Virus record (IMG/VR): IMGVR_UViG_2639762884_000001
Reading direction: 5' to 3' (one strand)
Length of the DNA: 64,000 bases
Source of the DNA: a virus
Taxonomy: Duplodnaviria > Heunggongvirae > Uroviricota > Caudoviricetes
This document shows positions 17,209 through 55,445 of this stretch, piece by piece. Positions within the stretch are counted from its first letter, which is position 1, and each line of letters opens with the position of its first letter. Below the pieces are notes generated by a model. The model saw only the letters and a program-made list of their open reading frames with translations, was not told the DNA's origin and did not search any database. The position numbers and the translations under genes were made by a program.

Positions 17209-18429
17209 TTAATTAAAACCGAATGAATTAAGTTCTGCTTTGAATTTATCGACCATTTTTTCAACTTCGTTTACAATTGCGTGAATCTCTTCGTCTTTTC
17301 TCGGATTAGAATTGAGGTCAAAATATGCCTTATATAAGGCATATTTTGACAAGCTTCCTTCAATATTTTCAGAGAAAATATTGGTACGACCATCAGTTAA
17401 TAAGATATCAGCAGATCGGGAATTTAAATTATATTTATAGTAAATCTTTATTAGTCTGCTTATCTCTTTTTCATTCTTGATTACCCTCTGTCTTTTACCA
17501 GCAATATTAAGACTCCAGCCTACATAACTAGTCAGATCGGAATTAAACTTACACACTTCCGCATCAGCTTTTTCCATATTTAGATTAATATTATTTCTCA
17601 TGTGTAGCGGTAATTCGTTGAATTTTTGCTGTAAATGCTGTTTGCAGGGATTGTTGTAAGACCACAGAATTGCGAACGTAGCTCTTTGCATCCGGGTATT
17701 CAGATCGATGTTAAAGTTCTCACGATCACGAATCATTTCATCTACATAAAACTCTACAGCTTTTCGGTATTCTTTGTTAAAGATCTCGGTAACATACATT
17801 TCTAAATAATGGACTTTCGAGATTGCCTCATCAAAAAAAAGCTCACTCTCAAAGAAGTTGTATTTATTTAAGAGATTAGAAAGTCTACTTAAGTCATAGG
17901 TTTTATTATTTTCAATATTAAGACCAAAAATGGCAATTAACAGACTTACTTTATGATTAATACTGCTACGTAATTGAGCTATATAAATTCTCTTTTCATC
18001 TTCTGCTGATGACAGTAGATAAAACTCTTTATCTAAATAATTTAAAATTAGAATTATGTGATTTACATATTTAATGTAAATAGGTTGTTTTGTTACATAA
18101 TAATAAATGCTTTTGATGGAATTAATGCTCAATTTCGTATTAAACTCTTTGTCATTCAACAAAGTGTTATTTACGTCCTCAAGTAATTTATCATGTTGCT
18201 CTAGTAATATTCCGTACCATTCTTTAAAAGAGGCTTTTTTCATTTCAAGAAGTGAATCTGCCGTTAATTGTGTTGCCTTCATTGCAGCTTTTGCACTATT
18301 TCTTGCCTCATAAGCAGCCCAAGCAGTAACAAAAGTAGCAAGTGAACCTATAGCCTCTTTGTATTCTTTAGCCACATCCCAAAAAATAATAGTTATTACA
18401 CACAATATGAGAATTAATATTAAAGGCAT
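17209..18429 (-). CDS. membrane-anchored protein of unknown function (AT-rich accessory gene)
   Basis: N-terminal TM MPLILILILCVITIIFW; remainder K/N/Y/F-rich; composition visibly more AT-rich than neighbours; opposite strand. Confidence 0.55.
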   Translation of the reverse strand: MPLILILILCVITIIFWDVAKEYKEAIGSLATFVTAWAAYEARNSAKAAMKATQLTADSLLEMKKASFKEWYGILLEQHDKLLEDVNNTLLNDKEFNTKLSINSIKSIYYYVTKQPIYIKYVNHIILILNYLDKEFYLLSSAEDEKRIYIAQLRSSINHKVSLLIAIFGLNIENNKTYDLSRLSNLLNKYNFFESELFFDEAISKVHYLEMYVTEIFNKEYRKAVEFYVDEMIRDRENFNIDLNTRMQRATFAILWSYNNPCKQHLQQKFNELPLHMRNNINLNMEKADAEVCKFNSDLTSYVGWSLNIAGKRQRVIKNEKEISRLIKIYYKYNLNSRSADILLTDGRTNIFSENIEGSLSKYALYKAYFDLNSNPRKDEEIHAIVNEVEKMVDKFKAELNSFGFN

Positions 18430-54038: not shown

Positions 54039-54269
54039 ATGTCATACCCGACTAATGTCGTTGCGCTCGTAGAGAGCGATTTTCTGGCCCAGGCTCGTGA
54101 AATGATGAAAGATCGTGAGCAGGCCTTCAACTTGTACGAATGGGCAATTAAGTGCTTGCATCTTGGCGAGCATCGCGAACTTGTTGAACAGCTTTTAGGT
54201 GAGTTGATCAATGAGGTGTTTGCCTTGAATGTTCAACTACATGGTAGAGAAAATAATCAATCACAATGA
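54039..54269 (+). CDS. hypothetical protein
   Basis: ATG 54039 with AAGGA RBS. Confidence 0.45.
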   Translation: MSYPTNVVALVESDFLAQAREMMKDREQAFNLYEWAIKCLHLGEHRELVEQLLGELINEVFALNVQLHGRENNQSQ

Positions 54270-54850
54270 TAGATAAGTACAAACTATTCATAAAGTGAAT
54301 TGTAAGTGCTAAGATCTGATAGTTTCCAGTCGTAGACTGGAGGCTCGATCTGATGGGTGGGGGTAAGCGTCACTGGCGTCAGGTTTAAAAAAGCTCACTA
54401 CCAGCGTAGAACCGGTGCCGTTTAGGTGTCGGGGAAGGGGGAACCAAAGTGAGCAGAGACAAGGGTCACTTTATGATTGTCGAGTCTGGGGTGTTTCGAG
54501 AGGTTGAATCCAGTACTCCCCTTCATAAAGTGTGGGAAGATCTCGGTTCTGGGGTGCTGTCATCCATAACTTCCCAAGTCTAAGCTGGCAGTAGACTTAG
54601 ACCATAGCTTTTCAGGTTATGAAACGACCAGGTTGGTGAGGAATTTTATACTCACCTCCCTGGGAGAGTATTACCTGAAAAGACAACCTCTCACTTCGTT
54701 CGAGGTGAACTTCACTCACTTCGTTCGTTCAGTTCAGGTTTATAAAAACCTGTTCTGGGAAGTAATTTGTTTATTTTAATAATTATTAACACGCACGCGT
54801 GTGCGCACGCGCGAGGAAAAAATCGGCGCGGCGCTTGATTCAGGAGTTTA
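54270..54850. other. ~580-bp non-coding, GC-richer structured region (candidate ncRNA or cis element)
   Basis: No plausible ORF on either strand; hairpins (ccagtc gta gactgg), direct repeats (tcacttcgttcg x2, tctggggtg x2) and GC palindrome cacgcgtg near 54790-54812. Confidence 0.35.
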
Positions 54851-54851
54851 T

Positions 54852-55445
54852 ATGACGACGAAGACACCAGCCCGATCGCAAGCAAAAACTCGCAAAAAAG
54901 ACAAAAACAAAAATTCTCCCCGCACCAATCCCACAACGCCTGTCGTAGAGTTCAACCCCCAGCTTAAAACCGTGAAAATCTTTAGTGATGGCTCTTGCCT
55001 CAAAAATCCGGGTGGCCCGGGCGGTTACGGTATCGTTCTCCAGTATCGTGGTGAGGAACGCGAGTTCTCAGATGGTTTTCATAGCACCACCAATAACCGC
55101 ATGGAGATGATGGGGGCACTTATCGGGCTGGAGCGTTTGAAATATCCATGCAACGTTATTTTGTACTCTGATAGCCAGTATCTGAAAAACGGCATGACAC
55201 AGTGGATGAAATGGTGGAAACGTAATGGATGGATGACTTCTGATAAAAAACCGGTAAAGAATGTTGATCTGTGGAAACGTCTGGATGAGGCCGCAAGTCG
55301 ACATAATGTTCGCTGGAAGTGGGTTAAAGGTCACGCCGGGCATCGTGAAAATGAAATATGTGATCGACTCGCGAAGATCGCAGCTTTTTCCGCAGCCGAT
55401 ACGCCTCACAAGAAAGACATTGGTTTTATTTACAACAAGTGGTAA
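54852..55445 (+). CDS. rnhA: ribonuclease HI with N-terminal basic extension
   Basis: Core closely matches bacterial RNase HI ([51 protein letters not shown]); ~38-aa Lys/Arg/Thr-rich N-terminal extension; ATG 54852 with AGGAG RBS. Confidence 0.85.

Follow-up and report, generated by a model that had tools for sequence, protein, structure and literature searches.

The DNA examined here is a 64,000-nucleotide (nt) stretch, IMG/VR record IMGVR_UViG_2639762884_000001 (the window, below), which its sequence matches identify as an SSU5/pHCM2-type phage-plasmid of Escherichia coli. We conclude that the long gap upstream of its RNase HI gene, rnhA, very probably holds an independent gene for a multi-helix non-coding RNA of ~450 nt that belongs to phage-plasmids of this type. 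An earlier note had picked out this gap, 54270-54850, as free of open reading frames (ORFs) and structured, and had proposed a structured non-coding RNA, a lytic origin, or a packaging or other cis-acting site. The first candidate is now backed by extreme nucleotide conservation, compensatory changes of base pairs, a conserved promoter and published RNA-seq; covariation above controls, a promoter of its own and transcription, as expected of a structured RNA gene, were all found. The origin is not supported (see below), and we found nothing pointing to a packaging or other cis site. The region can now be divided into promoter/operator-like DNA (54270-54321), the RNA itself (~54322 to ~54770-54790) and a GC-rich spacer with the rnhA ribosome-binding site (54790-54851).

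The description in the earlier note stands. Of the ORFs contained entirely in the gap from the upstream stop codon (54269) to the rnhA ATG (54852), the longest encode 44-48 amino acids. GC content is modestly raised (0.51 at 54300-54599 versus 0.41-0.49 in most 1-kb windows), and the GC skew over the same 300 nt, +0.33, is the highest within the surrounding 10 kb. Measured against dinucleotide shuffles, the + strand folds strongly (-209 kcal/mol, z = -6.6); the corresponding values for the - strand are -168 kcal/mol and z = -5.7. Both direct repeats are present, (C)TCACTTCGTTCG at 54690-54702 and 54715-54727 (the sole two matches in 64 kb, where 0.01 are expected; repeat unit CTCACTTCGTTCG, with starts at 54690 and 54715) and TCTGGGGTG at 54485-54493 and 54548-54556, as is the GC palindrome CACGCGTG. 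Among the checks suggested were an RNA-family covariance search, which matched no Rfam 15 family, and a comparative alignment for compensatory changes, which did find them. The idea was to be given up if the region proved unconserved and untranscribed; it is conserved, and it is transcribed in the published RNA-seq of a relative.

Conservation and lack of coding potential

Conservation was assessed in an alignment of the window with 5.5-kb loci of SSU5, pHCM2 and Enterobacter, Citrobacter, Klebsiella and Salmonella Senftenberg plasmids. Identity over 54386-54685 reaches 93-98% across the E. coli, Salmonella, Klebsiella, Enterobacter and Citrobacter relatives, while the flanking genes stand at ~60-80% at the DNA level. 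The ultra-conserved body of the RNA, with the same 93-98% identity between lineages, spans 54343-54767 on the + strand, and its conservation ends at 54767 (UUCUGGGAAGUAA). Over 44 kb the window is on average 78.5% identical to the SSU5 genome. The element is among the two longest islands of at least 95% identity in this comparison and the only non-coding one, the others lying inside Pol III alpha and a 561-amino-acid methylase; no further ultra-conserved non-coding island, as a possible partner site, was found against SSU5. At the level of sequence comparison, the element is under far stronger purifying selection than its neighbours.

The selection does not act on a protein, as far as substitution patterns can tell. 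When the window is compared with three divergent clades, substitutions fall about equally often on each codon position (54/53/52, p = 0.98), without a 3-nt periodicity; the upstream gene and dam show codon periodicity in the same comparisons (p ≤ 1e-5). Phage Cyrano carries an annotated 44-amino-acid hypothetical protein here, CYRAN_81 (L003:2680-2814, equivalent to 54449-54583), which was scored as a highly expressed moron. Its frame is shifted in 18 of 62 distinct variants, with the nucleotides downstream of the shift invariant. Neither a conserved frame nor a third-position bias nor protein similarity, as would mark a gene or pseudogene, was seen in the element, and these comparisons show the sequence to be non-coding. 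In SSU5, the start of rnhA (SSU5_090; L001:2864-3628) has been annotated ~150 nt too far upstream, inside the element. We regard both this 5' extension and the spurious CYRAN_81 as annotation errors that arose because the RNA gene was unrecognised. The records that we checked annotate the element as nothing, as the spurious ORF (Cyrano) or as a 5'-extended rnhA (SSU5_090).

Compensatory changes and the fold of the RNA

RNAalifold predicted 127 pairs from 62 distinct close variants, with almost no broken cells and eight pairs with compensatory double changes. Because these variants are too little diverse, we sought divergent copies, which were found via the upstream protein family and its contigs. 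They form clades at 83% (L094) and 68% identity (L092, L093, L095 and, later, L116 and L142). In 22 sequences that include both levels of divergence, 97.6% of cells are standard pairs and 26 pairs have changed on both sides, compared with 7.4±2.3 in column shuffles (0 of 500 shuffles reach 26). Sliding the 3' partners by 1-3 columns left 2-8 double-change pairs, and the covariation score of these sequences was 0.140 versus 0.087. Compensatory support falls on helices H1, H2, H7, H8, H9, H10, H11, H12, H14 and H17. Many of the one-sided changes within helices pass via G·U. Standard pairs make up 99.8% of cells on the + strand; when the pairs are mirrored onto the - strand, G·U turns into C·A and the value drops to 89.8%, which identifies the + strand as the selected one. 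Taken together, the alignments show at least ten + strand helices to be maintained by compensatory changes.

The best-supported predicted helices follow one another along the + strand. H1 (54347-54385) is a long hairpin with a GGGUGGGGG run and five double-change pairs; it is part of covariance model R1, which scores 131 bits here. H2 (54393-54454; GCUCAC/GUGAGC) encloses H3 and an invariant GGGGAAGGGGGAACCAAA segment. Three of its six pairs covary, and in the L092 clade it reads CCUGU/GCAGG. H7-H9 (54467-54532) build a three-tier arm whose outer arms form a perfect 10-nt inverted repeat, with double changes in two, two and one pairs, respectively. H10 and H11 (54533-54576) accompany an invariant GAUCUCGGUUCUGGGGU segment and have three and one covarying pairs and no broken cells. 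Half of the ten pairs of the H12 hairpin (54578-54602) covary, with G·U intermediates. The long arm formed by H13 and H14 (54608-54682) carries a variable apical loop; H14 has two covarying pairs, and H13 appears, reading from the alignment, to be kept in the 68% clade (L092) after re-registering from CAGG/CCUG to CUGG/CCAG. Next come the two CUCACUUCGUUCG boxes of the first direct repeat, which surround GAGG-UGAA-CUUC (54690-54727; two copies versus 0.01 expected) and would permit mutually exclusive hairpins. Altered forms of both boxes persist in the L092 and L094 clades, and L092 has GAGG-GAAA-CCUC as its version of the small hairpin; the pairing that RNAalifold proposes for this region (H15/H16) is without covariation support. 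The 3' hairpin H17 (54729-54758), with two covarying pairs, overlaps UUCUGGG (54753-54759), which is invariant in every clade.

Promoter, 5' hairpin and 3' end

Each clade has a -35 box (TTnAnn or TTTACn), a 17-nt spacer (16-18 nt in L094) and a -10 box (TAnnAT) at a constant distance from the body of the RNA. In the window these are TTCATA (54287-54292, + strand) and TAAGAT (54310-54315, + strand). The -35 box conforms to TTnAnn, at the same position and with the 17-nt spacer, in 11 of 12 clade representatives, and its columns are invariant in the main alignment; the -10 box keeps TAnnAT across clades as TAAGAT, TAAAAT, TAGAAT, TACAAT or TAACAT. A generic promoter scan did not list the pair because it scores 8/12. 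A hairpin, TTTCCAGTC-GTA-GACTGGAGG (54323-54343, + strand), follows 6-8 nt after the -10 box; its stem differs among at least seven clades and always folds. The comparison shows that each clade keeps a putative sigma-70 promoter and a 5'-terminal hairpin in register, and transcription is predicted to start at ~54322.

Upstream of the promoter, an invariant TAAGTA (54274-54279) forms half of a palindrome (GGTAAGTACTTACC in SSU5) and abuts the -35 box in all clades of this element (type A, below); palindrome and box lie within 54270-54292 in the window and within L001:2430-2460 in SSU5. The palindrome may serve as an operator or mark where the upstream transcript ends. A separate observation concerns the E. 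coli lineage only, in which the promoter region TTCATAAAGTG...GTGCTAAGATCT (54287-54317) repeats an internal segment of the RNA, TTCATAAAGTGTGGGAAGATCT (54522-54543), and is for that reason complementary to the 5' strand of H7 (54466-54476). A duplication specific to this lineage could explain the match, which might also hint at autoregulation.

At the other end, a 96% A+T stretch (54763-54789), U-rich on the RNA strand and varying in sequence between clades, is the probable 3'-end region. The conservation boundary and the drop of expression before rnhA bracket the end at ~54770-54790. The palindrome CACGCGTG lies just beyond, within a GC-rich tract of strictly alternating purines and pyrimidines, ACACGCACGCGTGTGCGCACGCGCG (54789-54813), which at 25 nt is the longest in the window (the next has 15 nt). 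Relatives keep an alternating tract of variable sequence and of 6-28 nt, as if its length changed by dinucleotide slippage. Placed between the RNA gene and rnhA, it may adopt a Z-DNA or cruciform structure.

Expression in lysogens

RNA-seq data of E. coli LF82 have been re-analysed in a published study, which counts CYRAN_81, the ORF within the element, among the genes of the phage-plasmid Cyrano (97% identical here) with expression 12-fold above the prophage background (PMC9928086, Table 1). The underlying values are given as log2(fpkm+5), where fpkm stands for fragments per kilobase per million, for ten samples (PMC9928086, S1 Table). In pairs of replicates, CYRAN_81 reached 6.8 and 6.9 in stationary LB (BLB), 9.3 and 9.0 in B1, 6.9 and 6.9 in B6, 9.0 and 8.2 after 1 h in macrophages (MB1), and 10.35 and 10.3 after 6 h in macrophages (MB6). 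Over all ten samples its range of 6.8-10.35 compares with 3.1-5.8 for the upstream gene and 2.6-5.0 for rnhA (PMC9928086). By these values, the CYRAN_81 stretch is expressed ~16-45 times as strongly as both neighbouring genes in lysogens, and ~11-fold higher after 6 h in macrophages than in stationary LB. With the upstream gene and rnhA both low, transcription does not enter from the left, and it does not proceed into rnhA at a comparable level. Transcription of the element is regulated independently of both flanking genes.

A second structured RNA and a cargo site

A sister lineage of 30 Klebsiella plasmids, among them K. oxytoca pCAV1099-111 (L089:3238-3807) and K. pneumoniae pCRKP18622-1 (L090:3238-3887), encodes an upstream protein that is 47-50% identical, followed by an ORF-free gap of 570-650 bp before rnhA. 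This gap contains a different element of ~430 nt (type B) with a promoter-like TTTACT-17-TATGAT, a 5' hairpin, a fold of z = -6.2 and a terminator-like hairpin followed by U7. Two members of type B differ by six compensatory pairs and no broken one. The type-B locus matched no Rfam model at gathering or permissive thresholds. A blastn comparison of types A and B gave chance-level short matches only (E > 1), and a covariance model of the type-A 5' domain, which scores 75-131 bits on known copies, found nothing in the type-B loci (best E 0.5). Motif resemblances noticed by eye (GGUGGGGG..AGCG and AAAAGCUCA) were dropped because they sit in different helical contexts. That an unrelated structured RNA fills the same slot suggests that the locus requires a large structured RNA of lineage-specific sequence. 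The type-B locus also has TAAGTAA..TTACTTA overlapping its -35 box (L089:3236-3262), so that the TAAGTA palindrome looks like an operator shared by the two non-homologous loci.

The gene to the right of the type-A element varies. Besides rnhA we found betT, an IS110 element with a reverse-strand gene, pairs of unknown proteins, and an unrelated protein of 200 amino acids that is not an RNase H and is followed by a weak Tad2-like (anti-Thoeris) match. RnhA is replaced in L008, L010, L011, L092 and L095 (L008:3000-5484, L010:3000-4803, L011:2940-5436, L092:3329-4416). Judged by these loci, the position directly after the RNA gene is a cargo hotspot, and the tie to RNase H that the earlier note implied is incidental.

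Comparison with known RNAs

None of the 4227 models of Rfam 15, which include GOLLD, ROOL, C4, 6S, RNase P, transfer-messenger RNA (tmRNA), group I/II introns, riboswitches and T-box, was matched in the element. At gathering thresholds the whole window returned three tRNAs only, and a permissive scan of 54100-54950 (E ≤ 10) gave chance-level hits, the best being a hepatitis C virus stem-loop (21 bits versus a gathering threshold of 56, E = 0.06). ARAGORN placed four tRNAs at 16.4-17.0 kb and no tRNA or tmRNA in the element. We found no paper describing an RNA at 54322-54790. The element is a new RNA family of the general kind of large structured non-coding RNAs of mobile elements.

The closest parallels are GOLLD and ROOL, which are likewise hundreds of nt long, have many covarying helices with conserved junctions, are stand-alone RNA genes of phages and prophages, and were discovered via conservation rather than homology to a protein system (PMC5737381, PMC12286853). 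These ornate phage RNAs self-assemble (PMC12286853). The present element differs in having no sequence or covariance-model similarity to them (no Rfam 15 match at E ≤ 10), in its hosts, which are Enterobacteriaceae phage-plasmids, in its smaller size of ~450 nt, and in that the tRNA cluster lies 38 kb away.

A second comparison is with immunity RNAs. P1/P7 c4, P4 CI and N15 CA are RNAs of the lysogenic state, ~70-80 nt long, processed, made from a constitutive promoter at the head of an operon that needs to be silenced, and acting by short antisense pairing: their loop is complementary to repeated sites within the transcript itself, which leads to early termination or to a block of translation in an antirepressor or replication operon. 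The RNA described here is likewise lysogenic, has its own promoter and heads a rightward operon; in the lineages of SSU5 and pHCM2, an antirepressor or Rha gene belongs to this operon. Its short direct repeats around a complementary segment recall seqA/seqB/seqC of P4. Its sequence is lineage-specific, as for a specificity determinant, with a non-homologous RNA in the same slot of the sister lineage, and transcription largely stops before the gene that follows. On the other side, it has ~450 nt conserved over their full length, does not match Rfam C4 and has no complementary target in the 64-kb window, where the best complementary matches, 11-mers, are at chance level. Same-strand matches of 11-13 nt cluster at 17.8 kb and were considered as a paralogue; the idea was rejected because the cluster lies inside an AT-rich minus-strand ORF of 406 amino acids and is not collinear.

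A probable discrete RNA gene and its alternatives

In the explanation that we favour, the RNA would start near 54322, be shielded by the 5' hairpin and end in the U-rich stretch near 54770-54790; with such ends it would be a discrete transcript and not an mRNA leader. Its loops and junctions vary as little as its stems, and no long complementarity to other parts of the element turned up. The RNA therefore most likely works via the shape into which it folds, either by binding a conserved partner (protein or nucleic acid) or by assembling with itself, rather than as a simple antisense RNA. The plasmid-prophage state is the most likely setting for this action. Transcription into an otherwise silent rnhA/accessory operon would be stopped by the 3' part, which comprises the duplicated CUCACUUCGUUCG boxes, a weak U-rich end and the alternating tract of GC-rich sequence. 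As to its role, we would guess at a regulatory or scaffold RNA that depends on its shape and serves the plasmid-prophage state.

Several observations weigh against a discrete, fully folded RNA. Divergent clades contradict the closing long-range helices (H5/H6) and those at the 3' end (H15/H16), and since the body is mostly invariant in the main clade, several helices depend on two or three divergent clades and their MAFFT alignment. Scans and local folding found no canonical intrinsic terminator at the 3' end, and both ends are predicted. The expression counts refer to the 135-nt annotated ORF rather than to the whole element, and their strand-specificity is not established. Moreover, abundant short transcripts with little read-through are equally expected of a cis-acting attenuator leader.

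Such a leader, resembling an attenuator or riboswitch, of the rightward rnhA/accessory operon is the main rival, and we consider it possible if somewhat unlikely. Transcription would start constitutively and stop at the 3' end until a signal (a metabolite, a protein, a tRNA or induction) refolds the duplicated-box region and permits read-through; alternatively, the element as a whole would be an immunity region like those of P4, N15 and P1 that gates the rightward operon. The element is co-directional with the long + strand gene array, and a separate rnhA promoter was not detected. A transcript that is high within the element and low in rnhA is the classic picture of a terminated leader, its level shifts ~11-fold between conditions, and the two CUCACUUCGUUCG boxes around a complementary segment permit mutually exclusive hairpins. 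However, a leader should have a fixed downstream gene, and here the gene is inconstant (rnhA, betT, unknown proteins, a gene other than RNase H and once a reverse-strand gene). We recognised no terminator/antiterminator with a U-tract in the element, and no Rfam riboswitch or leader family matched. The presumed switch region is the least conserved part between clades, and ~450 nt of near-invariant sequence go far beyond what known attenuators need.

The remaining readings are unlikely. The least improbable of them, which we rate as a long shot, is a transcription-primed origin of the ColE1, T7 or mitochondrial OriH type, in which the G-rich RNA would form a persistent R-loop beside the AT- and GC-rich stretches and the adjacent RNase HI would trim it to a primer for lytic replication; in an origin of the ColE1 type, RNase H cleaves the hybrid and Pol I extends the RNA at a defined site. 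The surroundings are a DNA-replication module: genes for a DnaQ-like exonuclease, Dam and RNase HI are nearby, with Pol III alpha, primase, helicase and ligase elsewhere; the local excess of G over C is the strongest here, with G-runs GGGUGGGGG and GGGGAAGGGGG on the RNA strand. The 96% A+T stretch is followed by the GC-rich tract and GGAAAAAAUCGGCGCGGC, an arrangement resembling the ColE1 RNA-DNA transition, GGAAAAACGCCAGCAACGCGGCC. Like ColE1 RNA II, to which it is similar in length at about 500 nt, the RNA is G-rich and folded, has its own constitutive promoter and carries an A-run after a GC-rich segment, and the adjacent gene makes an involvement of RNase H plausible. Against this, the adjacency to rnhA is not conserved in several clades, and lysogens transcribe the element at a high level without any runaway of replication; its expression is not coupled to a runaway of copy number. 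Typing assigns the plasmids to the IncFIB RepA replicons, with RepA 19 kb from the element in SSU5. The element has no antisense RNA I-like promoter; the sole minus-strand promoter-like site (54328 to 54299) is upstream of the RNA start and points away. The GC-rich/A6 segment is conserved neither in the L092 clade nor in type B. A blastn search of 72,556 plasmid records gave no match to small ColE1-type plasmids among the matches listed, since all of these have ~60-240 kb. As for origins in general, no repeat family has more than two copies (no iterons), there is no switch of GC skew and no perfect DnaA box, and one-mismatch boxes occur at the background rate; an AT-rich stretch is present (54763-54789). 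Selection at the level of the RNA also speaks against the lytic origin of the earlier note.

Even less probable, in our judgement, is a recombination anchor beside the cargo-insertion hotspot that is kept uniform by frequent exchange between phage-plasmids and not by function. The gene content directly downstream is highly variable and a 5'-truncated copy stands at a rearrangement junction in Buttiauxella, as this reading would predict. Identity between clades is nevertheless uniformly ~88-98%, and blocks of 100% are as absent as stretches at background divergence. Where clades differ, the changes are concentrated in loops and compensatory pairs; the promoter and 5' hairpin covary, the element is specifically transcribed, and the 68%-identical clade keeps the fold. 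A small protein, be it the 44-amino-acid CYRAN_81 ORF that one record annotates or another micro-ORF, is hardly credible: the same frame is fused to an upstream ORF in Buttiauxella, but it suffers the frameshifting indels described above, shows no codon periodicity, starts with GTG without a conserved ribosome-binding site and is ignored by PGAP in the E. coli records listed.

Source, neighbouring genes and distribution

By megablast, Escherichia phages PhiR41_1, CMS-2020a and Cyrano match 54200-54900 at 98-99%; the matches to several Klebsiella phage-plasmids and to Salmonella phage SSU5 are at 87-91%. Over 54270-54850, E. coli plasmid CP099126.1 is 100% identical. In PLSDB, distant-mode blastn found the element in 687 of 72,556 plasmid records, from the genera that host SSU5-type phage-plasmids. 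All but ten of these records (677 of 687) are typed as non-mobilizable, with sizes of ~60-240 kb among those listed. The element is present in 232 of 5426 complete E. coli genomes, nearly always on plasmids of ~110 kb, and in the E. coli records listed PGAP annotates nothing under it, except where the 3' end of the query overlaps rnhA. All 73 IMG/VR contigs with the upstream gene also carry the element (73/73). In metagenomes it occurs on 56 contigs of the same clades, many from human gut assemblies; two further matches were at chance level. A scan of species-representative genomes found it only in Buttiauxella and two Kluyvera.

The Buttiauxella gaviniae copy (NZ_LXEP01000001.1; L086:4740-5170) is truncated at its 5' end and starts at the equivalent of ~54445. 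An in-frame fusion joins it to the end of an ORF for a 387-amino-acid SbcD/Mre11-like phosphoesterase, and it is followed by genes for a LysR regulator and a major facilitator superfamily transporter; from its sequence, this is a rearrangement junction. An apparent homologue of 81% identity (L096, Logan assembly SRR8137545_1625) was rejected: every C is read as T, as in bisulfite-converted reads of the E. coli version of the locus, and the artefact yields a protein cluster of its own (P0026).

The element lies in a + strand array of DNA-metabolism genes with the order ribonucleotide reductase, thymidylate synthase, dihydrofolate reductase, DnaQ-like exonuclease, a 269-amino-acid unknown and Dam, then the 76/84-amino-acid unknown, the ORF-free gap, RNase HI and small unknowns. 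On its left, the element is always adjoined by the gene at 54039-54269 (+ strand; phrog_5343), which encodes a predicted three-helix protein of 76 amino acids, or 84 from an upstream ATG. The protein, modelled with a predicted local distance difference test score of 79, matched no Pfam family and no PDB fold or sequence. The family comprises 29 clusters only, all from Enterobacteriaceae phage-plasmids. We considered a Rop-like partner role for this protein and dropped it, as fold and sequence comparison gave no match and were uninformative. The usual, though not obligatory, right neighbour is rnhA (54852-55445, + strand; Pfam RNase_H, E = 1e-45). Its product has a basic, low-complexity N-terminal extension of ~40 residues (54852-54970), and the RNase_H domain covers residues 40-178.

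Elsewhere in the window, the tRNA cluster at 16466-17023 comprises Asn-GTT, Tyr-GTA, Thr-TGT and Ser-TGA; SSU5 is annotated with only tRNA-Asn at the matching place. Directly after the cluster, on the minus strand and opposite to its neighbours, the 406-amino-acid ORF (17209-18429) has a GC content of 0.35 compared with ~0.45-0.46 for the window and looks like a recently acquired accessory gene.

Biological significance

SSU5/pHCM2-type phage-plasmids are common in clinical Enterobacteriaceae and can carry resistance genes, and the switch between plasmid maintenance and lytic growth in this group is poorly understood. The RNA is their most conserved non-coding sequence, is made during dormancy and reacts to the intracellular environment, which makes it an obvious candidate regulator. 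More speculatively, and in our view with rather little likelihood, it may be the founding member of a new class of large ornate phage-plasmid RNAs, an RNA machine or ribonucleoprotein governing the plasmid-prophage lifestyle. It might then be, for example, a lineage-specific determinant of immunity or incompatibility, or a sensor of host state, given the ~11-fold rise in macrophages. As an equally structured but non-homologous RNA of ~430 nt occupies the same slot in the sister lineage, the locus would then determine the function, and the sequence of the RNA the type. The RNA adds a large, well-defined and highly structured member to the short list of big bacterial and phage RNAs, and because it occurs in a genetically tractable host, its mechanism is directly testable.

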